The notes beneath the pieces are model-generated. The model had not been told where the DNA came from. It saw only the letters and a program-made list of their open reading frames with translations, and ran no database searches. 64,000 nt of DNA from an uncultured Anaerolineales bacterium (GTDB lineage Bacteria; Chloroflexota; Anaerolineae; B4-G1): contig CAYVCX010000002.1 in NCBI GenBank assembly GCA_964450435.1, forward strand, positions 43,760 through 107,759, written 5' to 3'. Positions 4,238 through 51,405 of this stretch are shown piece by piece. Each line of letters starts with the position of its first letter. Position 1 is the stretch's first letter. Both the position numbers and the translations under genes were made by a program.

Positions 4238-4404
4238 ATCCCAGACGCAGCGCGGAGAGGGCGAGAGAATGGGGGAATCAGACTGAGCTCGAGTCGGCGC
4301 GTCGCTGTGTTCGGACAGTGCCTGGTGGGCTCAGGGATTCGGTGTGACCCACCCGACCAGCGGTGGTCCGGGACACGTATAAGAAGATATTGGACAGAGA
4401 GAAC

Positions 4405-22576: not shown

Positions 22577-22654
22577 CTGGGCAGGGGAGCAGTGGATCAC
22601 CGACTGGATGCGCGAACGGACAATGAACAGACATATCAGGAAACGAGAGGGAAA

Positions 22655-25600
22655 ATGCCTTTGAAGACGGAACATGGAACTGCTGGGGCGGTACTGGTAG
22701 TGGGCGGCGGCGTTGGGGGCATGCGGGCGGCAATTGATGCAGCCGAGGCCGGGCTGAAGGTCTATCTCCTGGAGAGGCTGCCGTGGATAGGAGGCCGCGT
22801 GGCACAGCTGGGCTATATGTTCCCCACCCACGACTGTGTGCTTTGCCGGGGGACTGCTGACCACGGCTATGGCTGCACAAAGCCAACTATCTCACCGGCC
22901 CTCCTCGATTTCAACCTGCATCCCAACATCGAAATATTGAACAACTCGGACCTGATCAGCGTCGGCGGTCGAGCGGGTGACTTCACCGTGACCGTGCGCC
23001 GTCGCCCTACGTACGTGGACGCCGATCATTGCATCAACTGCGGGATATGCAGTGCCGTGTGCCCGGTTAGCCTTCCCAGCCCTTTTGAAGAAGCACTGAA
23101 GCCCCGCAAGGCGATCTACAAGATGGCCCCGCGGGCGGTGCCCAACACCTATATTGTGGACAAAGTTCCGCGTTGCGAGACCTGTCGCCGCTGCGAGGCC
23201 GTGTGCCCGACTGAGGCGGTCCATCTCGATGAGAGGGAATTCGAGCAAGAACTGGATGTCGGGGCCATTATCCTGTCGGTGGGGTTCTCATTGCCCGACC
23301 CCGGGGAGTACGAGGAGCTGGGCCATGGCCGCTATCCCAACGTCATCCACTCGATGGAGTACGAACGGCTGGCCAGCCGTTCTGGCCCCACGGAGGGGGT
23401 GGTTATGCGCCCGTCCGACGGGGCAGAGCCCGATCGCATCGCCTGGCTGCAGTGCATTGGGTCCCGCGATCAGAAATATCCCTTTTGCTCCTCAATCTGC
23501 TGCATGTACGCTACCAAGGAGGCAATGGTAGCGAAAGAGCGGATCGACGATGTTCGGTGCCAGATCTTTATGATGGATGAGCGCGCCTTCAACAAGGAGT
23601 TCAACGCCTACTATGAACAGGCGCGTGAGGAGTATCAGATAGAGTACACCCGCTGCCGCATCTCCGAGGTCAAGGAGGATCCGGACACCCACGACTTGAT
23701 CCTCCGCTACCCCGACGACGAAGGGCGTATGCATGAGGAGCAATTCGACATGGTGGTTCTCTCCGTCGGCGCGCACCCGCCGAACGGGTCGAAGGACCTG
23801 GCCAACGTGCTGCAAATTGAATTGAACCCCTACGGCTTCTGTGAGACGGACAAGTTCGCGCCGTTGGAGACCAGCCGGCCGGGCATCTACGTTTGCGGGG
23901 CCTTTGCCTCCCCGAAGGAGATCGCCGAGACGATCCTGGATGCTGCTGGAGCGGTAGGGGATGTCACTCGTCTGATGCGAGAGCAGGTTGGCCGACTGCC
24001 TGCCAGCCGTGAGTTTCCATTCCTCTGGAGGCCGGACAGACTGCCCGCCGAGCGGGACGTGAGCGGCGAAGAGCCCCGCGTGGGCGTCTTCCTCTGCCGC
24101 TGCACGCCCACGCTCGACGGTGTGGTGGACGTGGACGAGGTGGCTGGCTTCGCTGAGGCGATGCCGAACGTGGTTCACGTCCGACCGGTGGAGTACGGCT
24201 GCTTCGAGCCAGGCCTGGACGCCATCCGATCTGATATCAAGGAGCACGGGCTGAATCGCGTGATCGTCGCAGCTTGCAGCCATCGCACTCACGAGCCACT
24301 GTTCCAGCGTACGGTGCGGGAGGCAGGGCTGAATCCCTACCTCCTGGAGATGGTGAATGTGCGGGAGCACTGTGCCTGGGCCCATATCGATGATCCGCCC
24401 GGGGCCACTCGCAAGGCGAAGGAGCTGATGCGCATGGCGCTGGGTCGCGTCCTGGCGGCCGAGCCGGTCCACAAACTGGAGCTCAGGCCTGTGCCTCGGA
24501 CCTTGGTCATCGGCGGCGGGGTGGCGGGGATGACCGCTGCACTGAACGTCGCCGATGCCGGCTACGACGTGACGCTGGTGGAACGCGAATCGGAGTTGGG
24601 AGGGAATCTGCGCAACGTCTACTACGTGGCCGAGCCCGAGAATCCCCAGCGGCTGCTGCGTGATCTGATCAACCGCATCATCGGTCACGAGCGCATCGAT
24701 CTTCTGACCGAGACCGAGCTTGTGTCGCACAGGGGACGCGTCGGTGACTTCACATCTGTGCTTCGCAACCTGCGCGACGGGCGCATTGTGGAGACCGAAG
24801 TAACTCACGGTGCTACGATCGTCGCCACCGGAGGGCGCGAATGGCGGGGTGACGTCTACATGCTGGGACGTGATCCTCGAGTAGTCACCTCAGAGGACTT
24901 GGAGGATATCATCGCCCATCGCCCGGAGGAGATCACCGACCTGGAGCAGGTGGTCTTCATCCAGTGCGTGCGCCCACCCGGTGGAGTGGAGTACTGCAGT
25001 CGTATTTGCTGCACCAACACGATGAAGAATGCGAATCGCATCAAGATGCTCAATCCCAGCTGCCAGGTTGTTGTACTGTATCAGGACATCATCACCTACG
25101 GTTTCCGGGAGGCATTCTACACCGAGGCGCGCGAGCGCGGTGTCATCTTTATGCGATACGATGAGGAGCATCTCCCGGATCTACGCAAGGTGAACGGTGA
25201 TCTGGAACTCACGGCGTGGGACCCAACTCTGGATAGAGAGACAACTCTCAGGCCCGACATGCTGGCCTTGAGTATGGCGATCGAGCCTTCTCCCGGCACG
25301 GAGAAGTTGGCGCGGATACTGGGAGTGGATCTCTCCAGCGAGGGCTTCTTCATGGAGGCCCACCTGAAGATGAGGCCCATGGACTTCGCGTCGGAGGGCA
25401 TCTTCTTCTGCGGCATGGCGCATTACCCCAAGTTCATTGAGGACGCCATTGCCAACGCCCAGGCTGCCGCGGGACGGGCGCTTACCATCCTCTCGAAGGA
25501 TCGCCTCTATATCGGCGGCGTGATCGCCGAGGTGGATCAAGATAGTTGTGTGGGTTGCTTGACTTGCGTGCGGACCTGCCCCTTCGAGGTCCCGGAGATA

Positions 25601-25801
25601 CGCGGCGAGGATATGGGAGTCGGCAAGATCAAGGGAGCGGCATACATCGAACCGGGCCTCTGTCAGGGGTGCGGCACGTGCGTCGGTGAATGTCCGGCCA
25701 AAGCTATTCAGCTGATCAACTATCGAGACGAACAGATCATGGCCCATTCCCTGGGGAGCTGGATGCCGGAGGTCGTGGGTCAGGGAGAGTACAATGGATA
25801 A
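22655..25801 (+). CDS. hdrA: Tandem HdrA-like flavoprotein (about 1048 aa), same architecture as 11024-14092
   Basis: Motifs VLVVGGGVGGMRAA and FPTHDCVLC in the first half. Motif VFLCRCTPTLDG and a second GGGVAGMTAA in the second half. Ferredoxins at the C-terminus. Confidence 0.8.
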   Translation: MPLKTEHGTAGAVLVVGGGVGGMRAAIDAAEAGLKVYLLERLPWIGGRVAQLGYMFPTHDCVLCRGTADHGYGCTKPTISPALLDFNLHPNIEILNNSDLISVGGRAGDFTVTVRRRPTYVDADHCINCGICSAVCPVSLPSPFEEALKPRKAIYKMAPRAVPNTYIVDKVPRCETCRRCEAVCPTEAVHLDEREFEQELDVGAIILSVGFSLPDPGEYEELGHGRYPNVIHSMEYERLASRSGPTEGVVMRPSDGAEPDRIAWLQCIGSRDQKYPFCSSICCMYATKEAMVAKERIDDVRCQIFMMDERAFNKEFNAYYEQAREEYQIEYTRCRISEVKEDPDTHDLILRYPDDEGRMHEEQFDMVVLSVGAHPPNGSKDLANVLQIELNPYGFCETDKFAPLETSRPGIYVCGAFASPKEIAETILDAAGAVGDVTRLMREQVGRLPASREFPFLWRPDRLPAERDVSGEEPRVGVFLCRCTPTLDGVVDVDEVAGFAEAMPNVVHVRPVEYGCFEPGLDAIRSDIKEHGLNRVIVAACSHRTHEPLFQRTVREAGLNPYLLEMVNVREHCAWAHIDDPPGATRKAKELMRMALGRVLAAEPVHKLELRPVPRTLVIGGGVAGMTAALNVADAGYDVTLVERESELGGNLRNVYYVAEPENPQRLLRDLINRIIGHERIDLLTETELVSHRGRVGDFTSVLRNLRDGRIVETEVTHGATIVATGGREWRGDVYMLGRDPRVVTSEDLEDIIAHRPEEITDLEQVVFIQCVRPPGGVEYCSRICCTNTMKNANRIKMLNPSCQVVVLYQDIITYGFREAFYTEARERGVIFMRYDEEHLPDLRKVNGDLELTAWDPTLDRETTLRPDMLALSMAIEPSPGTEKLARILGVDLSSEGFFMEAHLKMRPMDFASEGIFFCGMAHYPKFIEDAIANAQAAAGRALTILSKDRLYIGGVIAEVDQDSCVGCLTCVRTCPFEVPEIRGEDMGVGKIKGAAYIEPGLCQGCGTCVGECPAKAIQLINYRDEQIMAHSLGSWMPEVVGQGEYNG

Positions 25802-26252
25802 CGAAGGAACCGGACACGAAGGATTCGTACCGGAAATCACCGCCTTTACCTGCATCTACTGCGGCTACATGTCTGCCGACACCGCCGGGACGCTGCGGCT
25901 CACCTATCCGTCGAATGTCAAGTTGGTTCGATTGCCGTGTACCGGCAAGGTAGACGTACGCCATCTCTTGAACGCCTTTGAGGAAGGGGCAGATGGCGCC
26001 TACGTGGTCGCCTGTCCCATTGGCAACTGCCATCACGTCCACGGCAACGAACGGGCGGTGAAGAGAATCGAGTACACCAAGAAACTGCTGGATGAGGTGG
26101 GCATCGGCGGCGAGCGCCTGGACATCGTCTTCACCACCGGGGGGATGGGAGCTTCCTTCGCCAATGCCGCCAGGCGCATGACAGAGCGTATCAGAGAGCT
26201 GGGTCCGAACCCGCTGAACGGACACGGGGCTGAAGGGCTGGGGAGTCGGTAG
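25794..26252 (+). CDS. mvhD: MvhD paralog (variant motif ACPIGNCHHVHG)
   Basis: Motif FTCIYCGYMSADTAG. It overlaps the stop of the upstream hdrA by 8 nt. Confidence 0.8.
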   Translation: MDNEGTGHEGFVPEITAFTCIYCGYMSADTAGTLRLTYPSNVKLVRLPCTGKVDVRHLLNAFEEGADGAYVVACPIGNCHHVHGNERAVKRIEYTKKLLDEVGIGGERLDIVFTTGGMGASFANAARRMTERIRELGPNPLNGHGAEGLGSR

Positions 26253-26339: not shown

Positions 26340-29300
26340 ATGCAGCAAGTTGTCAAGCAGAGGAGTCCTATTGGTGCCGCGATGGTGGTCGGCGGCGGAG
26401 TCGCTGGCATTCAAGCGTCACTGGATATGGCGGAGGCCGGCTACAAGGTCTATCTGGTGGAGGCCAAGTCGGCCATCGGTGGGCACATGGCACAGCTGGA
26501 TAAGACCTTTCCCACCAATGACTGCGCCATGTGCATCATCAGCCCCAAGCTCGTGGATGCCGGTCGCCATCGCAACATCGAGCTGTTGGTCGATAGCGAG
26601 GTCATCGGGGTTCAGGGCGAGGCTGGGGATTTCGCCGTTCGTCTGCGCCAGAGGCCCCGTTACATCGACCTCGACAAGTGTACCGGCTGCGGCGACTGCG
26701 CCGATGTCTGTCCGGTCGTCATCCCCAGTCAATTCGACGAAGGATTGGCGGAGCAGCGGGCGGCTTACAAACTCTATCCGCAGGCTGTGCCCAACGCCTT
26801 TGCTATCGAGAAGCGGGGAGTCGCACCCTGTCGTGACGCCTGCCCGTCCGGGCAGCGTGCTCAGGGCTACATCGCCCTTATCCGGGAGGGGCGCTACGAA
26901 GACGCCCTGCGGGTCATTAAGGAGGACAACCCTTTTCCCGGCATCTGCGGCCGCATCTGCAATCACCGCTGTGAGGATGCCTGCAACCGGGGCAAGTTGG
27001 ATGAGCCGATCAACATTCGGGCGCTGAAGCGTGTCGTCACAGACAGGGTCTACGCCGAAACGCGAGCGCCTGTCCAGCCAGCGGAGCGGATCTACGACGA
27101 GCGCGTCGCCATCATCGGGGCTGGACCATGTGGGCTCACCGCAGCCCAGGATCTCTGTAAGGAGGGTTATGCGGTCACTGTCTTCGAGGCTCTCCCTGTG
27201 GCCGGCGGAATGCTCCGTGTTGGCGTTCCTGAATACCGCTTGCCCTCCGAGATCGTGGATCGGGAAGTCCGCGACATTGTCGATCTTGGTGTGGATCTGC
27301 GGCTGAATCGTCGGGTGGACAACCTGGATGAGGTTTTCGACAAGGGTTTCGACGCTGTGCTCGTTGCTGTGGGCGCTCACGAGGGCGTCCGGCCCCCCGT
27401 TCCCGGCGCCGACCAGGAGGGAGTGCTGGTTAGCACCGTGTTCCTGCGCGACGTGCGAATCGGCGAGCCACCGGAGCTGGGAGAGCGCGTCGCAGTCGTC
27501 GGGGCTGGTGATGTGGCGATGGACGTGGCCCGTACTGCCGTGCGGTTGGGGTCGGAGGTCCACGTCTTTTACCGCCGCCGGCGTCAAGACGCTACCGCTG
27601 CCGAGCAGGAGATCCGGCACGCCGCGGAGGAGGGAGTATCCTTTCACTTCCAGACCAATCCCACGGAGATCATCGGCGATGGTGACGGCAGGCTGAAAGG
27701 GATGATGTGCGTCGACACCGAGCCGGGAATGCCGGACCGGTCTGGCCGACCGCGCCCGGTTCCCATCCCCGAATCCGAGCACTTCGTCCCGTGCGACGAC
27801 GTCATCTTCGCCGTGGGCCAGCGCGCCGGCCTGGCTTTCATCCCGGAGAGCTCCGGCGTGGGCATCACGGATCAATCTACCATCGCGGTGAATCCCAACA
27901 CCATGGCTGCCACCCGCGAAGGCGTCTTCGCTGCGGGCGACGCTACAACTGGCACGGCCTTCGTCATCGAGGCGGTCGCTCACGGTCATAGAGCCGCCCG
28001 CTCGATCCACCGCTACTTGCGCGGCGAGGAGCTGGAGCCGCCACCCGAGCCGGACCTCCCCGTCGTGGAGCTGACCCAGGCGGAAATTGAGGAGCGTGTG
28101 ACCCGGGGCGAGGTCCAGGTTCAGCCCCGGGTGCCGATGGACGAGCTCTCGGTCGACGAACGGGTCTCCACCTTCCAGGAGGTGACGACGGGCTACACCG
28201 ATGAGCAGGCCCAGGCCGAAGCGGCCCGCTGCCTGGCCTGTGGGATCTGCTCCGAGTGTCTCAGTTGTGTCTATGAGTGTGAGGCCGATGCCGTCGTCCA
28301 CGACATGGTGGAGCAGGTGTATGATATCGACGTCGGCGCTATCCTTATGGCCCCCGGCTTTGAAGCTTATCACGCCGAGGGTTCGGCGGAGTACGGTTGG
28401 GGACGCTATCCTAATGTGATCACCTCCGTTCAACTCGAGCGGCTGCTCAATGCTTCTGGACCCACGCACGGTCACGCGCGGCGACCATCGGACGGGAGGA
28501 CGCCGAAGCGCATCGCCTTCCTCCAATGCGTCGGCTCGCGCGATCAGGAGCACGACTACTGTTCCTCTGTTTGCTGTATGTATGCCACCAAGGAGGCCAT
28601 TCTGGCCATCGAGCACGAGCCAGATACCGAGGTCACCATCTTCATGATGGACATGCGGGCCTTCAGCAAGGGCTACGAAGAGTACTATCAGAGGGCCCAG
28701 GACCGTTACGGCATCGAGTACGTCCGCTGTCGCATTTCCGAGATCAAAGAGGACCCAGACACCCACGATCTGCTGGTGCGCTACGTTGAGGGCGAAGGCT
28801 CGCAATTCGCCGTTCGCCACGCCCGGTTCGACATGGTGGTGCTTTCGGTGGGGATGGAGGTGCCTGAGAGTGTCCGTGATCTGGGCCAGCGGTTAGGCAT
28901 TGCGCTGGATGAGTATGGCTTCGCCCGGACGAACCCCTTCGCCCCCCTGGAGTCCAGCAAGGCGGGCATTTTCGCGCTCGGTCCGTTCCAGGAGCCGAAG
29001 GATATCCCTGAATCAGTGGTTCAGGCCAGCGGGGCGGCTGGCCTGGCCGGTGCGCTGCTGGCTCCCGCTCGTTGGACGCTGACGGAGGAGGAACCGTATC
29101 CTCCGGAACGAGACATCTCCCAGGAGGAACCTCGTGTCGGTGTCTTTATCTGCCATTGCGGCTCGAACATCGCTGGCTTCTTGGATGTGCCTGCCGTGGC
29201 CGAGCACGCCGGTATGCTGCCCGGGGTCGTCCATGCTGAACATAACCTCTACTCCTGCTCCCAGGATGCCATTCAACACATCACGGAGGTGACGAAAGAA

Positions 29301-30845
29301 CAGGATCTGAATCGCGTCGTGGTGGCCTCCTGCACTCCGTTGACTCATGAACCCCTTTTCCAGGATGCCATCCGGCAGGCGGGGCTCAACCCGGGCCTCT
29401 TCGAGATGGCCAATATCCGGAATCAATGCTCCTGGGTCCATCCAGATAGCTGGGAGGCCGCCACTGAGAAGGCCAGAGACCTTGTGCGCATGGCTGTGGC
29501 CAAGGCAGCTCGGCTGGAACCACTGCACAGGACGGAGATCGAGGTGGAGAAAGCAGCTCTGGTAATCGGCGGCGGAGCGGCTGGCATGAACGCAGCGCTG
29601 ACGCTGGCCCGGCAAGGCTTTCCTGTTCACCTGGTGGAGAGGGAGGACTGCTTGGGAGGCAATCTGCTCCACCTGCGCCGATCTCTGGAGATGGATCCGG
29701 GATCTGGGGAGCAGAGATGGCTTGATCCTCAGGAATATGCTGAGGATCTGGTGCGTGAGGTGATCGCGGAGCCGCTGATTACCGCTCATCGGAACACCCA
29801 ATACGTGGAGACGGATGGCTTCCTGGGCAATTTCACCTCCCGCCTGGAGGGAGGAGACGGGGAGTTCGAAATTCGTCACGGAGTCACAGTTGTTGCCACG
29901 GGGGGCGAGGAGTATCGTGGGCCGGAGTATGGCTATGGACGCGACCCTCGTATTATCACCCAGCAGGAGTTCGAGCAACGGCTGGATGAGGATGACGGTC
30001 TTCCCCACTCCGTGGTGATGATCCAGTGTATCGGTCCGGCTGAGCGATATTGCTCCCGCATTTGCTGCACCACCGCCCTGAAGAACGCGCTGCTGCTCAA
30101 GAAGCGCGACCCGCAGGCTGATGTGACAGTGCTCTACCGGGACATTCGCACTTATGGTTTCAGAGAGCGCATCTACGAGGAGGCCCGTCGGGCCGGGGTG
30201 ATGTTCGTACGCTACGACCTCGAAAACAAGCCAGACGTACAAGGTGAAAACTCGAATCTGCGGGTTGCGGTGCGTGAACCTGCACTGGCGCGGGACATCA
30301 TCCTTGAACCCGACCTGGTTGTGCTCAGTATGCCGGTGGTACCCTCCAGGGGAGCGAAGGAACTCGCGATGCGGCTCAAGACGCCCGTCGACCTCGATGG
30401 CTTCTTTATGGAGGCACACGTCAAGCTGCGCCCGGTGGATTTCGCCACCGATGGCTTCTTCCTGGCGGGGATGGCCCACTATCCTAAGTTCCTAGACGAG
30501 TCCATTGCCCAGGCGCAAGCTGCTGCCGCTCGGGCAGCAACCGTCCTGAGCCGCGACACGCTGGAGGTGGGTGGCATCGTCGCCCAGGTGGACGATGAGG
30601 AGTGCGTCGGTTGCCTGACCTGCGTCCGCATCTGCCCGTACGACGTGCCGCGGATCCGGACGGACCTAACCGGGGTGGGGGCCATCAGGGGCGCGGCCTA
30701 CATTGAACCGGCTCAATGCCACGGCTGCGGTATCTGTGCTGGAGAATGTCCTGCTGGAGCCATCGAATTGCTCCACTATCGACGCCAGCAGATGGAGGCC
30801 AAGGTCGCCGCGCTTCTGGAACCGGTTCCAGAAGCTGCCGCGTAG
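26340..30845 (+). CDS. Giant HdrA / GltD-like NAD(P)H oxidoreductase / HdrA fusion (1501 aa; HdrL-like)
   Basis: Residues 1 to about 150 are an HdrA FAD N-terminus with FPTNDCAMCIIS. Residues about 170-560 resemble the glutamate-synthase small subunit (motifs NPFPGICGRICNHRCEDAC, VAIIGAGPCGLTAA, GAGDVAMDVARTA, VFAAGDA). Residues about 870-1501 are a complete classical HdrA (VFICHCGSNIAG, GGGAAGMNAA, C-terminal ferredoxins). Confidence 0.8.
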   Translation: MQQVVKQRSPIGAAMVVGGGVAGIQASLDMAEAGYKVYLVEAKSAIGGHMAQLDKTFPTNDCAMCIISPKLVDAGRHRNIELLVDSEVIGVQGEAGDFAVRLRQRPRYIDLDKCTGCGDCADVCPVVIPSQFDEGLAEQRAAYKLYPQAVPNAFAIEKRGVAPCRDACPSGQRAQGYIALIREGRYEDALRVIKEDNPFPGICGRICNHRCEDACNRGKLDEPINIRALKRVVTDRVYAETRAPVQPAERIYDERVAIIGAGPCGLTAAQDLCKEGYAVTVFEALPVAGGMLRVGVPEYRLPSEIVDREVRDIVDLGVDLRLNRRVDNLDEVFDKGFDAVLVAVGAHEGVRPPVPGADQEGVLVSTVFLRDVRIGEPPELGERVAVVGAGDVAMDVARTAVRLGSEVHVFYRRRRQDATAAEQEIRHAAEEGVSFHFQTNPTEIIGDGDGRLKGMMCVDTEPGMPDRSGRPRPVPIPESEHFVPCDDVIFAVGQRAGLAFIPESSGVGITDQSTIAVNPNTMAATREGVFAAGDATTGTAFVIEAVAHGHRAARSIHRYLRGEELEPPPEPDLPVVELTQAEIEERVTRGEVQVQPRVPMDELSVDERVSTFQEVTTGYTDEQAQAEAARCLACGICSECLSCVYECEADAVVHDMVEQVYDIDVGAILMAPGFEAYHAEGSAEYGWGRYPNVITSVQLERLLNASGPTHGHARRPSDGRTPKRIAFLQCVGSRDQEHDYCSSVCCMYATKEAILAIEHEPDTEVTIFMMDMRAFSKGYEEYYQRAQDRYGIEYVRCRISEIKEDPDTHDLLVRYVEGEGSQFAVRHARFDMVVLSVGMEVPESVRDLGQRLGIALDEYGFARTNPFAPLESSKAGIFALGPFQEPKDIPESVVQASGAAGLAGALLAPARWTLTEEEPYPPERDISQEEPRVGVFICHCGSNIAGFLDVPAVAEHAGMLPGVVHAEHNLYSCSQDAIQHITEVTKEQDLNRVVVASCTPLTHEPLFQDAIRQAGLNPGLFEMANIRNQCSWVHPDSWEAATEKARDLVRMAVAKAARLEPLHRTEIEVEKAALVIGGGAAGMNAALTLARQGFPVHLVEREDCLGGNLLHLRRSLEMDPGSGEQRWLDPQEYAEDLVREVIAEPLITAHRNTQYVETDGFLGNFTSRLEGGDGEFEIRHGVTVVATGGEEYRGPEYGYGRDPRIITQQEFEQRLDEDDGLPHSVVMIQCIGPAERYCSRICCTTALKNALLLKKRDPQADVTVLYRDIRTYGFRERIYEEARRAGVMFVRYDLENKPDVQGENSNLRVAVREPALARDIILEPDLVVLSMPVVPSRGAKELAMRLKTPVDLDGFFMEAHVKLRPVDFATDGFFLAGMAHYPKFLDESIAQAQAAAARAATVLSRDTLEVGGIVAQVDDEECVGCLTCVRICPYDVPRIRTDLTGVGAIRGAAYIEPAQCHGCGICAGECPAGAIELLHYRRQQMEAKVAALLEPVPEAAA

Positions 30846-31373: not shown

Positions 31374-31715
31374 GTGAGGACCAGGAAGAAGTTTGATATT
31401 CAGGAACAGACGCTCGAATTCGCCGTGCGGGTGGTGAGGCTGGTCAAGCGGTTGCCCCGTACCAGTGCCGGCTTCGAGTTTGGCAGACAGGTTGTCCGGT
31501 CGGCAGCGCCTGCTGGATCTGACGTGGAAGAGGCTGACGCAGGCGGGCCCGGGCACGACTTCATTCATAAGATGAATGTTGCTCACAAGGACGGGCGGGC
31601 GACCGGTTACTGGTTACTTGTTGTTCAGGAAGCATTGCTCGATCATGGGAATGGTGAGGTCCGGGCTCGGATTCGCCAGGGCGACGAGCTTGGCGCATTC
31701 TGTATACCATCGTGA
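31374..31715 (+). CDS. Four-helix-bundle protein (family related to the 23S rRNA intervening-sequence protein)
   Basis: The pattern LEFAVRVVRLVKRLP ... RSAAPAGSDVEEA ... DFIHKMNVAHKDGRATGYWL matches the four-helix-bundle family consensus by eye. GTG start. Confidence 0.45.
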   Translation: MRTRKKFDIQEQTLEFAVRVVRLVKRLPRTSAGFEFGRQVVRSAAPAGSDVEEADAGGPGHDFIHKMNVAHKDGRATGYWLLVVQEALLDHGNGEVRARIRQGDELGAFCIPS

Positions 31716-31847: not shown

Positions 31848-32531
31848 ATGACGATGATCGTAGGGGAACAGAAACCGCTTAGCGAGATCATGGAACTGCT
31901 GGGCGATGCTCGCAAGGTGTTGGTGGCAGGCTGCGGCACGTGTGTGACCGTTTGCTTCGCTGGCGGCGAGAAGGAGGTTGGCATCCTGGCGTCGGAGCTG
32001 CGGATGAAGAGCAAGCTGGATGGTCATCCGATGGAAGTGGACGAGGTCACGGTGCAGCGCCAGTGTGAATGGGAGTACGTCGACCCGCTGGGGGAACGAC
32101 TGGACGAGTACGACGTCGTCCTGAGCCTGGCCTGCGGCATCGGGGTGCAGGCGATGAACGAGCGCTTCCCTCAGGCCATAACCCTTCCGGGCATCAACAC
32201 GACATCTTTGAGCCTGCCGGTGGAGCAAGGCATATGGGAGGAGCGCTGTCAGGCCTGCGGTGACTGCATCTTGGGGCTGACCTTCGGCATCTGTCCCATC
32301 GCCCGCTGCTCGAAGCAGCTGCTCAACGGGCCGTGTGGAGGTTCCCAGGAGGGCGTGTGCGAGGTCGACTCCGATATTTCCTGTGCCTGGCAGTTGATCT
32401 GGGATCGGGCGGTTGAGTTTGATCAGGTGGAGCGGCTGCTGCAGATCCAGCTCCCCAAGGACTGGTCACACAGTCGTGACGGCGGTCCGCGCAAGATCGT
32501 GCGCGAGGATCTGCAGCTGGAGACGGAGTGA
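31848..32531 (+). CDS. metV: MetV (methylene-THF reductase C-terminal-domain protein; zinc-ribbon / Fe-S small subunit)
   Basis: Motifs CGTCVTVC, CQACGDC, CPIARCSKQLLNGPCGG. It is immediately upstream of metF. An AAAGGAG RBS is present. Confidence 0.75.
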   Translation: MTMIVGEQKPLSEIMELLGDARKVLVAGCGTCVTVCFAGGEKEVGILASELRMKSKLDGHPMEVDEVTVQRQCEWEYVDPLGERLDEYDVVLSLACGIGVQAMNERFPQAITLPGINTTSLSLPVEQGIWEERCQACGDCILGLTFGICPIARCSKQLLNGPCGGSQEGVCEVDSDISCAWQLIWDRAVEFDQVERLLQIQLPKDWSHSRDGGPRKIVREDLQLETE

Positions 32532-32540
32532 GGTAGAACA

Positions 32541-33527
32541 ATGGCAGAAGAACGAACCAACGGCTACAAGTCAGGCAGCAATCTGGAGAAGGTCTTGAAG
32601 GCAGGTCACTTCGCGGTGACGGGAGAGCTGGGGCCACCTCAGAGCGCTGATAAGGAGGAAGTTGTTCACAAGGCGCGGCTGCTTCAAGGCGCAGCGGATG
32701 CGTTCAATATCACCGACAATCAGACTGCCGTCGTCCGCCTGTCCAGCATCGGCTCCGCCGTGCTGATGATGAAAGAAGGGCTGGAACCAACGGTGCAGAT
32801 GACCTGCCGGGACAGAAACCGGCTGGCGATTCAGTCCGATCTCCTGGCGGCCTATGCCCTGGGAGCACGCAACTTGCTGTGCCTGACTGGGGACCACCAG
32901 TGCTTCGGCAACCATCCGACGGCCAAGAACGTGCACGACCTGGACTCGATCCAGCTGATCAAGATGATGAAGGATATGCGGGACGAGGGCATCTTCGAGT
33001 GTGGTGATGAGATCAAGGGACAGGAGCCACGCTTCTTCATCGGGGCGGCGATCAATCCCTTTGCCGATCCGTTCGAGTTCCGCGCCTATCGCCTGGCCAA
33101 GAAGGTGGAGGCTGGCGTTGACTTCGTCCAGACCCAGTTGATCTACGACATGCCTCGCTTCCGCAGGTTTATGGAGCAGGTTGTGGACATGGGGCTTCAC
33201 GAGAAGGTCCATATCCTGGCCGGCGTCGGCCCCATCAAGTCTATCGGGGCGGCCAAGTACATGAAGAACTACGTCCCCGGAATGATTGTGCGCGATGAGT
33301 GGATCGATGGGTTGAGAGCTGCCGTCGCCGACATTCCCAAGGAGGACAAGGAAGCTCGCCGGGAGGCGCTCAGAGAGCAGGGAATCCGGGCCTGCAGTGA
33401 GCAGATCGAAGAGCTGCGCGAGATAGAGGGGGTGGCCGGGGTGCACATTATGGCCATCGAGTGGGAGGAAGCCGTGCGCCCCATCGTCGAGGGTGCAGGA
33501 CTCCTACCCCGCCCGCAGGTGGAGTAG
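32541..33527 (+). CDS. metF: 5,10-methylenetetrahydrofolate reductase (MetF)
   Basis: TIM-barrel MTHFR motifs (NITDN, CRDRNR, LCLTGD). The metV-metF-hdrCB order matches the acetogen metVF-hdr cluster. Confidence 0.85.
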   Translation: MAEERTNGYKSGSNLEKVLKAGHFAVTGELGPPQSADKEEVVHKARLLQGAADAFNITDNQTAVVRLSSIGSAVLMMKEGLEPTVQMTCRDRNRLAIQSDLLAAYALGARNLLCLTGDHQCFGNHPTAKNVHDLDSIQLIKMMKDMRDEGIFECGDEIKGQEPRFFIGAAINPFADPFEFRAYRLAKKVEAGVDFVQTQLIYDMPRFRRFMEQVVDMGLHEKVHILAGVGPIKSIGAAKYMKNYVPGMIVRDEWIDGLRAAVADIPKEDKEARREALREQGIRACSEQIEELREIEGVAGVHIMAIEWEEAVRPIVEGAGLLPRPQVE

Positions 33528-33536
33528 GGCAGGGAG

Positions 33537-34958
33537 ATGATGATGGCGATAAGAGAGCGCGTAGAGACGAGGACGCTGGCGGAGGAGGTCAAGCATCACA
33601 CCGGCTCGAACCCCTATCTGTGCTATCAGTGTGTGAAGTGCTCCAGCGGATGCCCGGTCGCGGAGCATATGGATCTGCAGCCTCACCAGGTGATGCGGTC
33701 CATCCAGTTCGACGACGAGAAGGTCCTGGAAGCCAGGACGCCCTGGGTATGCGCCGCGTGTGTCACCTGCACCACCCGCTGCCCACAGGGGATCGACGTG
33801 GCTGGCGTGATGGACGTGCTGCGTATCGAGGCGCGCAAGCACGGGATTGAACCTCCGCTGCGCGAGGTAGAGCTGTTCACCCAGGTCTTCCTGCGCATCA
33901 TTGGCGCCACGGGGCGCCTGTATGAGGCCGGCCTCATGGCAGCGATGAATATGCTGACACTGCAACCGCTGAAGGACATGGATCTCGGTGTGCAGATGAT
34001 CCTCAAGCGCAAGATCGGCTTCCTGCCCGACTTCGCTCGTCCTCCCAAGAACGTCCGGCCGGCAGAAGTGGATGACAAGACCATCGCCTATTACCCGGGG
34101 TGCTCCCTGGAATCCACGGCTACCGAGTTCGATCATACCTTCAAGGCTGTGTGCGAGGCACTAGATCTGAAGTTGGTCGAGCCCCCGGGTTGGATCTGCT
34201 GCGGCTCCACCCCGGCTCACACCACCGACTCCGTGCTGGCCGCCTACTACGCCATTCAGAATCTCTCCATTGTCGAGAGGATGGGACTGGACCAGATGGT
34301 GGCACCCTGCCTGGGCTGCTATCAGCGCTTTCTGGCCGCCGCTCGCGAGATAGAACGCGACCCGGAGATAGCCGAAAAGGTGGCGGAGAGGATAGGATAT
34401 GAGTATCAGGGTAGCGTCAAGACGCTCCACTCCGTCGATGCTCTGTTGAAGCGCGTCGGCCTGGAGAAGATTCGCGAGCAGGTGAAGAGACCGCTGGAAG
34501 GGATGAAAGTGGCCTCCTACTATGGGTGTGCGACGACCCGTCCTGCCACGCTGACCGGCGCGGAACACGTGGAGTACCCCATGTGTATGGATGACATTGT
34601 CCGCGCCTTGGGGGGCGAGCCCGTAGACTGGTCTTACAAAACCGACTGTTGCGGAGGGAGCCTGGGAATTACCCAGACCGACGTGGCACTGGAGCTTTCC
34701 GCCAAGATCCTCGAGAACGCCGAGGCCTGCGGAGCCGACCTCATGATCACTGCGTGCCCCTTGTGTCAGGTCAACGTCGAGAGCCGCCAGATGCAGATGG
34801 ACCTGGGCTTCGACCTGCCGGTGCTCTACATCACCCAGTTGATGACCCTGGCTTTTGGCATGGGCGAGAAGAAGGCGGAGCTGAGCAAGCAGATTATCGA
34901 TGCCCGTCCGGTGTTGCGAGAATACGGATTACTGACGTCGGTTGAGGCATCTTCATAG
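33537..34958 (+). CDS. hdrD: Fused HdrC-HdrB (HdrD-like) heterodisulfide reductase subunit
   Basis: N-terminal motifs CYQCVKCSSGCP and CAACVTCTTRCP, then YYPGC followed by two CCG domains. Confidence 0.8.
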   Translation: MMMAIRERVETRTLAEEVKHHTGSNPYLCYQCVKCSSGCPVAEHMDLQPHQVMRSIQFDDEKVLEARTPWVCAACVTCTTRCPQGIDVAGVMDVLRIEARKHGIEPPLREVELFTQVFLRIIGATGRLYEAGLMAAMNMLTLQPLKDMDLGVQMILKRKIGFLPDFARPPKNVRPAEVDDKTIAYYPGCSLESTATEFDHTFKAVCEALDLKLVEPPGWICCGSTPAHTTDSVLAAYYAIQNLSIVERMGLDQMVAPCLGCYQRFLAAAREIERDPEIAEKVAERIGYEYQGSVKTLHSVDALLKRVGLEKIREQVKRPLEGMKVASYYGCATTRPATLTGAEHVEYPMCMDDIVRALGGEPVDWSYKTDCCGGSLGITQTDVALELSAKILENAEACGADLMITACPLCQVNVESRQMQMDLGFDLPVLYITQLMTLAFGMGEKKAELSKQIIDARPVLREYGLLTSVEASS

Positions 34959-35619
34959 GAGGGCGAACGTGCTAGTCAAAGACTTGATGACACCTGATCC
35001 GATATGTGGACGGCCGGACATGGTGGTCACCGAGATCCAGAAGCTGATGAGCCATAACAACATACGCCACGTGCCCGTCGTGGACGAGGCCGAGCAGCTG
35101 ATTGGCCTGGTCACCCAGCGTTCTCTCTTCAGTGCGCTGCGCACAGAAGAGAGTGACCTCAGCCAGTTCGAGGTCAGTTACATCCTCGCGAAGATCCAGG
35201 CTCAACACGTGATGGTCGAGGACGTCATCACCATCGAGCAGGATGTGCCGGTGGAGGAGGCGGCTCGCGTGATGGCGGACCGGCGGATTGGCTGCTTGCC
35301 GGTGATGGGAGAGGGTGAGTTGGTCGGCATCATCACCGACAACGACCTGTTCAATGCGATGTTGAACTTGCTGGGGGCGCGGCGCTCCGGTGTTCGCCTG
35401 GTCGTCCTCCAGCCGGATCGCACGGGCGAGGTGGCTCGCTTGACCAACGTGATTGCCGAACAGGGAGGCTATCTGTCGGTCTGCGCTGGCTATTTTCCCG
35501 AGGACGCACCCGGTTCCTGGGCTTCTGTCGTGAAGGTTACTAACCTGTCAGAAGACGAGTTGGTGAGCCTCATCAATCGTCAGGATGAGATGCAAATCGT
35601 GGACGTGCGAGAGGTGTGA
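34942..35619 (+). CDS. CBS-domain pair plus ACT-domain protein
   Basis: Tandem CBS motifs (VKDLMTPDP ..., GCLPVMGEGELVGIITDNDL) and a C-terminal ACT-like region. The start may be the GTG at 34969, which follows an AGGAGGG RBS. Confidence 0.6.
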   Translation: MRHLHRRANVLVKDLMTPDPICGRPDMVVTEIQKLMSHNNIRHVPVVDEAEQLIGLVTQRSLFSALRTEESDLSQFEVSYILAKIQAQHVMVEDVITIEQDVPVEEAARVMADRRIGCLPVMGEGELVGIITDNDLFNAMLNLLGARRSGVRLVVLQPDRTGEVARLTNVIAEQGGYLSVCAGYFPEDAPGSWASVVKVTNLSEDELVSLINRQDEMQIVDVREV

Positions 35620-35667
35620 TCGCCTGCTTGAAGGCGGGCACGGCCTGAACCAGGGGAGGCACGGCGT

Positions 35668-36201
35668 ATGCCCGAAGCCATCTATATGAGAGAAGCGCGG
35701 AGGCTCCCGGGCAGCGAGTGGATCAAGGACCACCCGAAGCCCCTGGAAGCGTTCTACAGGCTTACCAAAAAGGTAGTCGTTCGGGTGTACCCGCTGATGA
35801 GGCGGGTTAGCCCGACGCTCTCCGAGCGCACGCTGGCGTGGGGGGAGAAGATCGTGAAGGGATGGATCTTCAACTGCCAGATGTGCGGTCAGTGCGTTCT
35901 ACATAGCACGGGCATGACGTGTCCTATGACCTGTCCCAAGAAGCTGCGCAATGGTCCCTGTGGCGGCGTTCGCCACAATAACCACTGCGAGGTCATCCCC
36001 GATAGGCTTTGTGTCTGGGTCCAGGCCCGGGAGCGCAGCCAGGCCATGCGATACTATGCTGACGACATGCGCATCGTCCAGCCGCCGGTCAACCATGCGC
36101 TGGAGTCCATGTCCGCCTGGGCCAATATGGTCGAGGGTCGCGACACGGATGTACCGCCTGGATGGGCCGTGGCTGCGCGTGCTGAAGAGGCTGACGGATG
36201 A
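35668..36201 (+). CDS. metV: Second MetV-like protein (MTHFR C-terminal-domain family)
   Basis: Motifs CQMCGQC and CPMTCPKKLRNGPCGG parallel the first MetV. It overlaps the following metF-like gene by 4 nt (ATGA). Confidence 0.65.
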   Translation: MPEAIYMREARRLPGSEWIKDHPKPLEAFYRLTKKVVVRVYPLMRRVSPTLSERTLAWGEKIVKGWIFNCQMCGQCVLHSTGMTCPMTCPKKLRNGPCGGVRHNNHCEVIPDRLCVWVQARERSQAMRYYADDMRIVQPPVNHALESMSAWANMVEGRDTDVPPGWAVAARAEEADG

Positions 36202-37184
36202 GCAACACCTTGTCGTCTTGCCAGCGGTCAATGCGTTCGAGTAGCCGGTTGGAGCGGGCGCTGCGGTCTGGTCGTTTCGCTGTCACCGCTGAGTTGAATG
36301 CACCTGACAGCGCCGACCCCCAGGATGTCTACCGGAACGCGCTGGTGCTCTCCAAGTGCTGCCACGCCATTAACGCCACCGATGGCGCTGGCGCCAATTG
36401 CCACATGAGCAGCATCAGCTGTTGCGCGCTCCTTACCCGTGCGGGCTATGAGACGGTGCTTCAGGTCAATTGTCGCGACCGGAATCGCATTGCTATCCAA
36501 GGCAACTTGCTCGGCGCCGCCGCTATGGGGGTCAAGAACGTGCTCTGCATCACAGGCGATGACGTCTCCGTGGGTGATCAACCCGGTGCCAAGCGCGTCT
36601 TCGATATGGATTCAATCCACCTGCTTCGCACCGCCCGCATGATGCGCGATCATGGCGTCTTCCTCAGCGGACGTCGCATCACGACGCCACCGCGCCTCTT
36701 CCTCGGAGCGGTTGCCAGTCCTTGCGCGCCGCCCTATGATTGGCGTCCAGAGCGATTGGCCAAGAAGGTGGAGGCCGGGGCCGATTTCATTCAGACGCAG
36801 TTTTGCTTCAACGTGGAGCGCTTCAGAGAGTACATGCAGCGGGTGCGCGACCTGGGGCTCCACGAGCGCGCCTTTATCCTGATTGGTGTCGGCCCATTGC
36901 GTTCAGAGAAAGCTGCTGAGTATATGCGCACCAAGGTCCCGGGTGTGTGGATCCCCGATCAGGTCGTGGATCGAATGGCTCGAGCGTCCGAATCGCAGAA
37001 GCGGGAGGAAGGCATCCGCATTTGCGTGGAGATCATCCAGCAGGTCCGAGAGATCGAGGGGGTTCACGGCGTGCACGTGATGGCATATCGCCAGGAAGAG
37101 GCTGTGGCAGAGATCATCGAGCGTGCCGGTATTCTGCCAACCGGGGAATTCGAGGCGGGCGTCTGTGGACCGGATGAGTCTTAG
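36198..37184 (+). CDS. metF: Second MetF-like methylenetetrahydrofolate reductase paralog
   Basis: Motifs INATDG, CRDRNR, LCITGD. The 328 aa length is identical to MetF at 32541. Confidence 0.75.
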   Translation: MSNTLSSCQRSMRSSSRLERALRSGRFAVTAELNAPDSADPQDVYRNALVLSKCCHAINATDGAGANCHMSSISCCALLTRAGYETVLQVNCRDRNRIAIQGNLLGAAAMGVKNVLCITGDDVSVGDQPGAKRVFDMDSIHLLRTARMMRDHGVFLSGRRITTPPRLFLGAVASPCAPPYDWRPERLAKKVEAGADFIQTQFCFNVERFREYMQRVRDLGLHERAFILIGVGPLRSEKAAEYMRTKVPGVWIPDQVVDRMARASESQKREEGIRICVEIIQQVREIEGVHGVHVMAYRQEEAVAEIIERAGILPTGEFEAGVCGPDES

Positions 37185-37220
37185 GTTATGTATGCCTGAG
37201 CGTGCCTGGGAGGTGACTCT

Positions 37221-38000
37221 GTGACTCCACTGTCAAAAATCGCCATCAGCGGCAAGGGTGGGGTGGGGAAGACCACCCTGGCCGCCCTGCTCGCGCACAT
37301 CTACGCTGAGCGAGGCCGGGAGGTCACCGTCATCGACGCCGATCCGGTCGGGGGCCTGGCCCAGGCGCTGGGTCTTCCTGAAGAGCTCCTTGAGAAAGTG
37401 ACCCCGGTCGCGCAGATGGACGACCTGATCTACGAGCGCACCGGCGCCAAGCCGGGCACCTCCGGTGGCTTCTTCACTATGAATCCACGCGTGGACGACA
37501 TCCCGGAACGGTTTAGCGTGTCCCATCGCGGTATTCGTTTCCTCCGCCTTGGCACCATCGAAGCCGGAGGCAGCGGTTGCATCTGTCCCGAGAGCGCCTT
37601 GCTCAAGGCGCTGGTCACCCACCTGCTGCTCTATCGCGACGAGATGCTGATCCTCGACATGGAGGCTGGCGTGGAGCACCTGGGTCGTGCCACGGCTCAG
37701 GCGGTCGATGCCTTCCTCGTTGTCCTGGAACCGGGGCGGCGCAGCCTGACTACGGCCGAGCGCGTGCGCGAACTCGCGGCCGATATCGGCATTGCCCACG
37801 TCTATGCCGTGGGCAACAACGTCCGTGGGGAACAGGACCGGGCATTCCTGGCTGAGAGGAGCCCCGTGCCCATGCTCGGCTACCTCTCGCGGAACCCCCA
37901 GTTGACCGACGCTGATATGCGCGGGGAGGGGATCTACGATGCCGCTCCAAGATCCGTTGAGGAAGCGAGGCAGCTTGTAGCCGTGCTGGAGGACCTGTGA
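37221..38000 (+). CDS. cooC: Second CooC/AcsF-type Ni-insertion ATPase
   Basis: Walker A motif SGKGGVGKTT and the CxC metal-binding motif (GCICPE). GTG start after a GGAGGTG RBS. Confidence 0.75.
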   Translation: MTPLSKIAISGKGGVGKTTLAALLAHIYAERGREVTVIDADPVGGLAQALGLPEELLEKVTPVAQMDDLIYERTGAKPGTSGGFFTMNPRVDDIPERFSVSHRGIRFLRLGTIEAGGSGCICPESALLKALVTHLLLYRDEMLILDMEAGVEHLGRATAQAVDAFLVVLEPGRRSLTTAERVRELAADIGIAHVYAVGNNVRGEQDRAFLAERSPVPMLGYLSRNPQLTDADMRGEGIYDAAPRSVEEARQLVAVLEDL

Positions 38001-38755
38001 GACGAGGGGTCTCTCTCCTTGTCCTCTGCCTGGCGGCGACGTCCCTCACATCGCTGGATGCTTCGCCTGTCCGCGCGGAAGATCCACCGATCCTGCCTCC
38101 ATCGGCGACGGTGGAGGGGGTCCCGGCCCGTCCGCAACAGCGCAATCTGAGCTGCGAATCGCGTTCCGCCGCCGACCTGGCCGCCTACTGGGGAGCCGAG
38201 GTCGCGGAGGACGCCTTCTTCCGACGGCTGCCGAAATCGGACAACCCGCAGCGCGGGTTCGTCGGTGATGTGGACATGCCGCCCGGAAGCATGCCGCCCG
38301 ACGGGTATGGTGTCTATGCTCCCCCTGTCGCGGCTACGCTGCGTAGCTTCGGCCTCGATGCCCGGGCTCATCGTCACTTCGAGCTGGATGCGTTGAAGCG
38401 GGAACTGGCCGCGCAGCGGCCGGTTATCGTCTGGGCCACCTACGATATGCAGCTGCCGGGGGTGGAGACGTGGGTTTCGTGGGATGGAGAAGCGTCGACC
38501 GTCGTCCGCTGGCAGCATACCTTCATCGCCGTCGGCTACGATGACCAGGGCATCAGTTTGATCGACGCCTACGACGCCCGGACGAAGCGCTTCGCCTACG
38601 ATGCTTTTGTCGCCGCCTGGGATCAGCTCGACCGCATGGCTGTCACCGTCTCCGGGCCGTTGACGCGGCCGTCGCCCCGAAAGTGGACGATCACCACGGT
38701 CCAGGGGCTGCCCCAGTTCCTGATCGACGGCCGCTGGAGAGTGGGCCCGGAGTGA
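37997..38755 (+). CDS. Secreted papain-like (peptidase C39-like domain) protein
   Basis: Signal peptide (LLVLCLAATSLTSLDASP). A candidate nucleophile in NLSCESRSAADLAAYWG and a candidate His in QHTFIAVGYDD. The family call is by eye. Confidence 0.45.
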   Translation: MRRGVSLLVLCLAATSLTSLDASPVRAEDPPILPPSATVEGVPARPQQRNLSCESRSAADLAAYWGAEVAEDAFFRRLPKSDNPQRGFVGDVDMPPGSMPPDGYGVYAPPVAATLRSFGLDARAHRHFELDALKRELAAQRPVIVWATYDMQLPGVETWVSWDGEASTVVRWQHTFIAVGYDDQGISLIDAYDARTKRFAYDAFVAAWDQLDRMAVTVSGPLTRPSPRKWTITTVQGLPQFLIDGRWRVGPE

Positions 38756-38963: not shown

Positions 38964-39917
38964 ATGCGTGACCTGCACGACGTTCAAGTGATGTTGGAGA
39001 AGGTTGGCATTCCGGGACAGGATGCCTATGATCTGTCTGACAGTCCCAAACGCTTTCCTGACGGGGCCCATTACCGCATGGAGATCTCCGGCGTCGAGCG
39101 CCCTCAGGTGCTGGAGGCGCTCATCGACGAGATGAACAAGCGGGATATCGCCATTCATCGTCTCATCTCCACCGTGATGGGGTCCACCCTGCTGGATGAC
39201 GCTGAGCTCAAGGACTTCGCCCAGATGGCGGCCGATGCCGATCTGGAGGTCATTATCACCCCCGGGCCGCGCTCGGGCTGGGACGTGGGCCGCCAGCTTG
39301 TGACGCCGGAGGGCGGACTCTCTGGCCTGCGTTACCGGGGGTCGGATCAGCTCACCTACGTCATCGCCGAGTACCTCCGCTGCATTGACCTCGGCTTCCG
39401 CGGCTTCCTCTGCATCGACGAGGGGCTTCTCTGGCTGGTCAACGAGCTGAAGGCGACCGGGGATATCCCTGAGGACGTGGTCTTCAAGGTCAGTATCTAC
39501 GCCGGCCACGCCAGTGCTGCTGGCGGCAAGGTGCTGGAGATGCTGGGTGCCTCGACCTTCAACCCCCTCGGCGACCTCACGCTGCCGGAGTTGGCTTCCA
39601 TCCGTCAGGCCATCGACATCCCTCTGGACCTCCACATCATGCTGTCCGACTCCTTCGGTGGCTTCAACCGCTTCTACGAGGGGGCGGAGATGGCTCGCGT
39701 CTGCTCGCCCTGTTACTTCAAGATCGAGCCGGGAACGGCCCTGGCGACCGGCCCCGGGGCCTGGTACAAGCCGTGGACCAGCCCGGACATGCTCGCCTGG
39801 CAGGCCCGCGAGAAGGTCAAGTACGCCCAGATCATCCACGAGTTGATCCAGGCCACCAACCCGCAGTTGACCCTCTCGGCCCTCGGCCCGGACGACCTGG
39901 CCATACCGGCGGTGTAG
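38964..39917 (+). CDS. Hypothetical protein (317 aa), family not recognised
   Basis: Long GC3-rich ORF preceded by an AGGAGGAGG RBS. Confidence 0.35.
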   Translation: MRDLHDVQVMLEKVGIPGQDAYDLSDSPKRFPDGAHYRMEISGVERPQVLEALIDEMNKRDIAIHRLISTVMGSTLLDDAELKDFAQMAADADLEVIITPGPRSGWDVGRQLVTPEGGLSGLRYRGSDQLTYVIAEYLRCIDLGFRGFLCIDEGLLWLVNELKATGDIPEDVVFKVSIYAGHASAAGGKVLEMLGASTFNPLGDLTLPELASIRQAIDIPLDLHIMLSDSFGGFNRFYEGAEMARVCSPCYFKIEPGTALATGPGAWYKPWTSPDMLAWQAREKVKYAQIIHELIQATNPQLTLSALGPDDLAIPAV

Positions 39918-48168: not shown

Positions 48169-48201
48169 TGCCCGTTGGATACCGGGCGTCGCGCATTCTC
48201 G

Positions 48202-48633: not shown

Positions 48634-48641
48634 AGCGCGAC

Positions 48642-49799: not shown

Positions 49800-49863
49800 G
49801 ATGAGAATCAGTTGAAACGGGCTGGCGGTGTCACCTGCTTGAGCAGGTTAGAGATACCAGCCT

Positions 49864-51335: not shown

Positions 51336-51405
51336 AGGGCAGGAATCACGCGAGGGGATATGGCTGGTCCGTAGGCAGTCCCTCTCGTGTTGAGGAGGTG
51401 CGACA

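Follow-up and report, generated by a model that had tools for sequence, protein, structure and literature searches.

Why should one gene cluster carry two metV-metF pairs in tandem, and why should the second be followed by a gene for a CooC-type Ni-insertion ATPase? The question is raised by a stretch of 64,000 nucleotides from an uncultured Anaerolineales bacterium (contig CAYVCX010000002.1, positions 43,760 to 107,759; hereafter the window), in which positions 31848 to 38000 encode two putative methylene-tetrahydrofolate (methylene-THF) reductases (MTHFRs), MetV1F1 (pair 1) and MetV2F2 (pair 2). An initial annotation, made from the letters alone, read them as two complexes with different electron donors and regarded the metF-cooC neighbourhood as unusual. 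The analysis presented here makes it reasonably likely that pair 1 is a type IV enzyme in the type I-IV scheme of MTHFRs (PMC8760232), that pair 2 is a separate and intact reductase, and that the ATPase, CooC2, is an ordinary maturation factor of CODH/ACS (CO dehydrogenase together with acetyl-CoA synthase) brought to its present position by module shuffling.

The locus

The genes under study are the following:

31848..32531, + strand: MetV1, long form, 227 aa (PF12225/DUF5981, E 1e-33), with an N-terminal CxxCxxxC domain and an eight-Cys C-terminal core
32541..33527, + strand: MetF1, catalytic subunit, 328 aa (PF02219, E 4e-36)
33537..34958, + strand: HdrC-HdrB fusion (HdrCB), 473 aa, a Fer4 dicluster and two CCG domains (TIGR03288 HdrB, E 4e-49)
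34942..35619, + strand: AcuB-like CBS-pair protein, 225 aa (PF00571, E 2e-30; PDB 5AWE, E 3e-33), start codon uncertain
35668..36201, + strand: MetV2, short form, 177 aa (PF12225, E 1e-25), with the eight-Cys core kept
36198..37184, + strand: MetF2, catalytic subunit, 328 aa (PF02219, E 5e-38)
37221..38000, + strand: CooC2, Ni-insertion ATPase of the CooC family (MinD/SIMIBI class), 259 aa (PDB 3KJE over the full length, E 2e-42)

All open reading frames (ORFs) claimed for this region are present where the initial annotation placed them, on the + strand, and because their profile matches are strong, far beyond chance, its basic observation is confirmed. Both MetF matches span the whole 287-position PF02219 model, and HdrC models match the HdrCB fusion at E 1e-15 to 1e-16. 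The 4-nt ATGA overlap between metV2 and metF2 is real, and metV2 starts 48 nt after the CBS gene. The comparisons below draw on about 90 related loci (L numbers); a scan of species-representative genomes with CooC2 gave 80 loci, which were mapped using the window proteins.

Two distinct reductases

MetF1 and MetF2 share 46% identity. When the active-site and flavin- or folate-contact residues of both copies are compared, all are kept: an alignment with E. coli MetF and five other MetFs shows no variation at E28, T59, D120, K172, Q183 and H273 (E. coli numbering, which agreed with the published residue numbers). MetV1 and MetV2 align over the C-terminal Cys-rich core only; eight Cys of this core are the same in all 11 MetVs aligned, long and short, the two window proteins included. 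An identity matrix separates four MetF/MetV clades:

Clade a: MetF1, L021, L022, L049 and L060, more distantly L003 "A"; long MetV, Hdr-linked
Clade b: L009, L013 and L017; short MetV, MetF 60-65% identical to MetF1
Clade c: MetF2, L005, L006 and L088-L090; short MetV, mutual identity 75-89%
Clade d: L003 "B" and a Clostridia locus; long MetV, Acetobacterium woodii-like

The proposal of duplicate MetVF complexes with different partners thus stands in so far as there are two distinct and apparently functional reductases, pair 1 amid Hdr genes and pair 2 in a separate clade; the difference in electron donors stays a prediction from gene content. Pair 2 was also compared with the A. woodii-like second pair that accompanies histidine kinases and response regulators in DscP3 and in L003/L004; at 38-40% identity it falls in a different clade, and this assignment was rejected.

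Pair 1 and its electron-transfer module

Since MetF1 groups in the Hdr-linked, long-MetV clade a, pair 1 is predicted to be a type IV (Moorella-like, Hdr/MvhD-coupled) methylene-THF reductase. The metV-metF-hdrCB block does reproduce the acetogen MetFV-Hdr arrangement, as had been claimed, and lies amid HdrA-like, MvhD and HdrCB genes. Upstream of it the window contains:

22592..25801, + strand: double HdrA-like flavoprotein, 1069 aa (Pfam Pyr_redox_2, FAD_oxidored and several Fer4)
25794..26252, + strand: MvhD-like protein, 152 aa (PF02662 FlpD, E 2e-41)
26340..30845, + strand: GltD/NfnB-like NAD(P)H module (Pfam Fer4_20 and Pyr_redox_2) fused to an HdrA-like module, 1501 aa
30897..31370, + strand: MvhD with an in-frame TGA at 31101-31103, VAG-U-LEGECHY (PF02662, E 6e-46 with Cys put at the stop)
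31374..31715, + strand: small 23S rRNA intervening-sequence (four-helix-bundle) protein, between mvhD and metV1 (PF05635, E 2e-8)

The resulting order, HdrA-like protein of 1069 aa, MvhD, NfnB/HdrA fusion of 1501 aa, MvhD with the in-frame TGA, MetV1, MetF1 and HdrCB, is kept in at least 10 relatives. MetV1 orthologs in relatives are 77-91% identical. MetF1 is 75-80% identical to the MetF flanked directly by MetV1 and HdrCB in L021 and L022, and 63-66% identical to the MetF1-type gene of L049 and L060, where HdrCB is nearby and not always adjacent. The 1501-aa fusion stands directly 5' of mvhD-metV1 in nine loci (L007, L010, L011, L018, L021, L025, L026, L031 and L060), and pyridine nucleotides likely enter the type IV reductase through it.

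Eighteen related loci (60-88% protein identity) have the TGA of mvhD at the equivalent place, and the sequence stays conserved beyond the stop; the TGA is for this reason read as a very probable selenocysteine (Sec) codon. Gene callers split or miss Sec-mvhD: in L003 the gene called as MvhD comprises just 68 aa, and the gene called at this position in L007 has no Pfam hit. As L007, the closest relative examined, has no gene between mvhD and metV1, the PF05635 gene of the window looks like a recent insertion.

Pair 2, a short-MetV enzyme

MetV2 lacks the N-terminal Cys domain of about 110 aa (CxxCxxxC) found in MetV1, as do all short-clade members, and is therefore a truncated variant rather than a canonical MetV; it has instead a different N-terminus of about 60 aa and a C-terminal tail. 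A search with MetV2 returned 3823 homologs, the best 120 of which are all 161-199 aa long. MetF2 is 46-50% identical to MetF1-type proteins, 75-78% identical to the stand-alone pairs in L005, L006 and L088-L090, and 75-80% identical to Chloroflexota orthologs in general (Ardenticatenaceae, Caldilineaceae), which makes it more conserved than the MetF1-type proteins. Its orthologs are abundant at 75-92% identity. The description of the second block as more divergent does not hold in the evolutionary sense.

In one alternative, pair 2 is a copy of pair 1 that is decaying or redundant and serves no function of its own, and the initial annotation had itself allowed for metF2 being a pseudogene-like relic. 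The missing N-terminal domain of MetV2 would fit such decay, as would the absence of pair 2 from eight close relatives (L014, L021, L022, L025-L027, L029 and L031). The catalytic residues and the eight core Cys are nonetheless all intact, the orthologs in relatives are 84-92% identical with full-length ORFs, and pair 2 did not arise from pair 1 but falls in its own clade, which spans the phylum. A relic is rejected on these grounds; the decaying-duplicate reading is already contradicted and extremely improbable.

What pair 2 does is suggested by its company. Outside the lineage of the window, eight contexts of the MetF2 clade were sampled (Ardenticatenaceae, Caldilineaceae and other Chloroflexota), and in all eight the short-MetV/MetF pair forms a self-contained unit. 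Six of them (L005, L006, L088, L091, L092 and L093) have corrinoid methyltransferase or other C1 genes beside the pair, encoding MttB-family, Pterin_bind/MtrH and URO-D-type methyltransferases, B12-binding corrinoid proteins, RACo and formate-THF ligase; L005 has, in addition, electron-transfer flavoprotein (ETF) alpha/beta and an HdrD-like protein. In L006 and L091, metV and metF are separated by a gene for a pterin methyltransferase. Because the Chloroflexota orthologs usually adjoin methyltransferase, corrinoid, RACo and formate-THF ligase genes, MetV2F2 most likely interconverts methyl-THF and methylene-THF, in C1 metabolism that is either biosynthetic or concerned with methyl groups (demethylation), and works with a redox partner other than that of pair 1.

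Within this range, MetV2F2 might be no more than a housekeeping biosynthetic reductase that supplies methyl-THF for methionine, with no catabolic role and in tandem with pair 1 by chance. The clade is very conserved (75-89% identity), and its hosts include Caldilineaceae and Ardenticatenaceae that are aerobic or facultative and are not known acetogens; the pair stands alone, with no methyltransferase genes, in L089 and L090; and an adjacent B12-binding protein could be part of a split methionine synthase. This possibility deserves to be kept in mind, although it is not the one we favor: in L005, L006, L091 and L092 the genes beside the pair encode MttB-family proteins, RACo, formate-THF ligase, a DAO-FAO_M-GCV_T (Pfam) protein, and ETF with the HdrD-like protein, and since such genes adjoin the pair, methyl-group catabolism fits better than methionine synthesis. 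A search by sequence for solved MetV or MetFV structures returned none, and MetF2 matched only NAD(P)H-type MTHFRs; the residue comparison above accordingly relies on the alignment to E. coli MetF.

The CBS protein between the pairs

The gene at 34942-35619 was described beforehand as a CBS/ACT protein. Its CBS pair is clear from the PF00571 match (E 2e-30), and other AcuB entries besides 5AWE also match; the ACT part is seen weakly, the C-terminus matching an ACT profile in Pfam at E 0.037; a C-terminal ACT-like domain may be present. The gene is kept in L014, where metV2F2 is absent.

The metF2-cooC2 junction

The two genes are separated by 36 nt that include a GGGAGG ribosome-binding site. 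Scanned for promoters and terminators, the interval from 31848 to 38755 shows no + strand terminator between its genes, and its promoter-like hits fall inside genes, near shuffle expectation. On the other side, cooC2 is followed by:

37997..38755, + strand: secreted C39-like peptidase (PF13529, E 4e-14), whose GTG start overlaps the cooC2 stop by 4 nt (GTGA)
38964..39917, + strand: 317-aa protein with no family match

The N-terminal segment of the peptidase resembles a signal peptide. Among close relatives, defined as loci with a CooC at least 76% identical, the block cooC2-C39-(317-aa gene)-fumarase-2-oxoacid:ferredoxin oxidoreductase (OFOR) is almost invariant, and the peptidase and the 317-aa protein are the most conserved cooC2 neighbors in the Anaerolineae family. 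Upstream of cooC2, six different arrangements are found:

Form 1, as in the window, metF2 directly before cooC2: seven loci, L007, L008, L010, L011, L012, L018 and L020
Form 2, HdrCB-CBS without pair 2: L014
Form 3, hdrCB directly before cooC2: L021
Form 4, a different hdrCB type: L022, L025-L027, L029 and L031
Form 5, a histidine kinase/response regulator arrangement with hdrCB at its end: L003 and L004/L023
Form 6, a FAD-protein, a short MetV and a clade b MetF: L009, L013, L015-L017 and L019

The loci of form 6 make up a sister group without the type IV module, and their FAD_binding_2 protein is orthologous to the window gene at 20969-22576.

The MTHFR locus 5' of cooC2 is a hotspot of module exchange. 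The initial annotation had proposed following the metF2-cooC2 adjacency through other genomes; it recurs in the seven closest-lineage loci only, and a cooC neighbor of the MetV2F2 clade is found in none of the eight contexts outside this lineage. The view of cooC behind a MetF paralog as an unusual or meaningful pairing is not borne out. As far as synteny shows, cooC2 belongs with the downstream peptidase, given a nearly constant downstream and a variable upstream side, which is the possibility the annotation had named as fatal to its idea. We conclude that the adjacency is probably an accident of gene order confined to this lineage rather than a functional pairing of a new kind.

CooC2 and the AcsF-like ATPase

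The identification of the gene at 37221 as a true CooC-family ATPase is secure: the match to CooC1 of Carboxydothermus hydrogenoformans (3KJE, E 2e-42) is full-length, and its motifs are aligned in CooC2, the Walker A sequence GKGGVGKTT at residues 11-19 and the CxC motif within GCICPE at residues 118-123. The next best match is ArsA (E 7e-11). An identical CooC2 is found in the sediment data sets SRR7048218 and SRR15699983. The window holds a second member of the family:

4363..5214, + strand: first CooC/AcsF-like ATPase, 283 aa (PF01656), between RACo and acsE in the acs module

This protein shares 34% identity with CooC2, has a GCYC motif and matches 3KJE at E 8e-21. AcsF sits in a similar place inside the acs operon of Moorella.

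CooC2 orthologs with 53-58% identity in Myxococcota and Deltaproteobacteria form the last gene of acsD-CODH-acsB-acsC-acsE-DUF3786 operons, with CODH (Prismane) among the operon genes. In other Chloroflexota, copies with 53-65% identity are usually paired with an AcsF-like paralog in unrelated neighborhoods; an adjacent CooC2-like/AcsF-like two-gene unit is seen in 18 loci (L033, L035, L038, L039, L041-L044, L054, L058, L062-L066, L068, L070 and L072). We conclude that CooC2 is, as predicted from homology and position, an ordinary CODH/ACS nickel-insertion ATPase of the cluster. From similarity and position, CooC2 would load Ni into CODH and the AcsF-like ATPase into ACS.

Alternatively, CooC2 could be dedicated to the MTHFR/Hdr module, inserting or repairing a metal center in HdrB (non-cubane clusters), MetV or MetF2. 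Its upstream neighbors lend this some appeal, as cooC2 follows hdrCB, the CBS gene or a metF in 31 of 31 loci (CooC at least 76% identical, upstream sequence available), metV-metF-hdrCB still lies 3-4 kb upstream of the CooC2-like gene in L049 and L060 (61-63% identity), and the gap to metF2 is short, with no terminator. Against it, the CODH maturase CooC1 is matched better by CooC2 than by the AcsF-like copy; the Myxococcota and Deltaproteobacteria orthologs lie in acs operons without MetVF or Hdr alongside; most of the Chloroflexota copies with 53-65% identity have neither MetVF nor Hdr within 10 kb; and cooC is missing beside the MetV2F2 clade elsewhere. MetVF and Hdr are not known to have a Ni site. 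A dedicated role is accordingly improbable, and assignment to CODH/ACS is preferred.

The surrounding gene cluster

The locus is part of one very large, co-directional Wood-Ljungdahl (WL) supercluster, as which the window as a whole can be annotated. The window is GC-rich (GC content about 0.62), and its + strand holds nearly all real genes, from about 27 to 52000. The names carried by close homologs point to Anaerolineae. The main blocks on either side are:

27-7223: acs module, with acsD (cut by the window start), acsC, RACo, the AcsF-like ATPase, an acsE-like pterin methyltransferase and folD
3' of cooC2: the C39-like peptidase, the 317-aa protein, a class I fumarase, a four-subunit OFOR and more Hdr/MvhD modules

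The acs module is followed by several HdrC/HdrB/HdrA-like and MvhD modules. In all, at least five separate Hdr-like modules occur (7201-30845 and 45062-54015), composed of HdrC/HdrB pairs or fusions and HdrA-like proteins of 588-1501 aa, with four MvhD domains among them, one fused within a 659-aa protein. A NiFe-hydrogenase small-subunit-like gene is found at 55644-56636. Flavin-based electron-transfer modules are packed unusually densely in this window.

Proposed functioning

The region would represent the methylene-THF reductase section of the WL supercluster of a marine or sediment Anaerolineae bacterium. Judging from homology and synteny, MetV1F1, HdrCB, Sec-MvhD and the NfnB/HdrA fusion may form a pyridine-nucleotide-linked and possibly bifurcating reductase, and pair 1 would carry the catabolic WL flux between methylene-THF and methyl-THF. 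MetV2F2 would be a MetVF-only (type II-like) enzyme with a truncated MetV, using a carrier other than that of pair 1; in this lineage its place is between hdrCB, with the AcuB-like CBS gene, and cooC2. One of the reductases may be modulated by the CBS protein, possibly a sensor of an adenosyl ligand. CooC2 would partner the AcsF-like ATPase 32 kb upstream, the former loading Ni into CODH and the latter into ACS, and its position behind metF2 would be a by-product of module shuffling where the MTHFR module meets the cooC2 block.

Several observations weigh against this interpretation. CODH (acsA) and acsB are not within the window, the acs module being cut at the window start. Because no terminator separates them and the gap is 36 nt, metF2 and cooC2 are probably co-transcribed, which is compatible with some co-regulation. 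Form 6 also puts a MetF, in this case MetF1-like, directly 5' of cooC2, so that the MetF-cooC junction exists in two arrangements of the family, and in many relatives cooC2 comes straight after hdrCB, which could hint at a link to Hdr/MTHFR rather than to CODH. The CooC pair of L039 and L063 has no CODH in view and is surrounded by CysRS, ribosomal protein S2, CbiQ and histidine kinases; with such housekeeping neighbors these two loci are uninformative on function. As to pair 2, the methyl-group role draws on eight sampled neighborhoods, in two of which (L089 and L090) no C1 genes adjoin the short-MetV pair.

A further step, offered tentatively and with more doubt than the interpretation above, would make the short-MetV/MetF2 clade a class of MetVF specialized in oxidizing methyl-THF that arises when quaternary amines and similar substrates are demethylated in MttB-type or corrinoid reactions. 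The electrons might pass to ETF, an HdrD-like quinone reductase or another high-potential acceptor and not to ferredoxin or NADH. Recruited here beside an Hdr-coupled WL reductase, such an enzyme might allow the methyl branch to be run both ways by separate enzymes, possibly switched by the AcuB-like CBS sensor.

Significance and comparison with known systems

Which electron donor or acceptor MetVF-type reductases use is the chief point still at issue in the energetics of the WL pathway, and a genome with an Hdr/MvhD-coupled MetVF beside a truncated-MetV MetVF allows two coupling modes to be compared in a natural setting. In sediments, enzymes of the truncated-MetV clade may in addition channel osmolyte-derived methyl groups into C1 oxidation. 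The CooC case is mainly a caution: a gene order seen in one genome proved not to be conserved, and a normal role in CODH/ACS maturation explains the gene.

The type IV enzyme is the MetFV-HdrCBA-MvhD complex of Moorella thermoacetica (Mock et al., 2014, as summarized in PMC8760232), and the marine Anaerolineae DscP3 and An-B22 carry an hdr-mvhD-metVF cluster with fused hdrCB, the hdrC-hdrB fusion being reported for DscP3 (Sewell et al., PMC5736913). Pair 1 is like these in having metV-metF beside hdrC/hdrB, mvhD and an hdrA-like gene. The DscP3 cluster shares with the window the hdrC-hdrB fusion, the marine Anaerolineae affiliation and the presence of two metVF sets; these sets, non-identical and one of them between two-component genes, were reported in 2017 (PMC5736913), the set with two-component genes corresponding to the arrangement of L003/L004. 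The window differs from Moorella and DscP3 in that its HdrA is fused to a GltD/NfnB-like module (1501 aa) and its MvhD has a conserved in-frame TGA, and from DscP3 in that its second pair belongs to the short-MetV clade and not to the A. woodii-like pair.

Type II MetVF enzymes are described from Clostridium ljungdahlii, Thermoanaerobacter kivui and Eubacterium callanderi (PMC8760232, PMC8515935). Pair 2 resembles them as a two-gene metV-metF unit with no NADH-binding partner gene adjacent, and in keeping the MetF catalytic residues and the eight Cys of MetV, predicted for two [4Fe-4S] clusters. The agreement with type II is one of gene content, namely metV and metF with neither RnfC2 nor Hdr as a partner within their clade. 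In contrast to type II, MetV2 is without the N-terminal CxxCxxxC domain of about 110 aa found in all characterized MetVs, and its clade is linked to corrinoid methyltransferase genes in non-acetogenic Chloroflexota.

CooC2 compares with CooC1 (3KJE) and with the cooC/acsF pair of acetogens in its full-length homology, the deviant Walker A, the CxC motif and the two paralogs per WL cluster; unlike the acetogen pair, it lies about 32 kb from the acs genes, after metF2, with its stop overlapping the start of a C39-like peptidase. A cooC near metF is not unusual, since clostridial WL clusters list metV, metF, lpdA, cooC and acsD in series, with cooC one gene past metF (PMC10564238).

The components of the window and their clustering are thus of known kinds, and two metVF sets in Anaerolineae Hdr clusters have already been published. 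Mildly new are three points: the combination of a phylum-wide truncated-MetV pair with a type IV enzyme; the wide occurrence of the short-MetV clade in Chloroflexota, which contradicts a published remark that metV is missing from other Chloroflexi (PMC5736913); and the neighborhood link of this clade to corrinoid methyltransferases.

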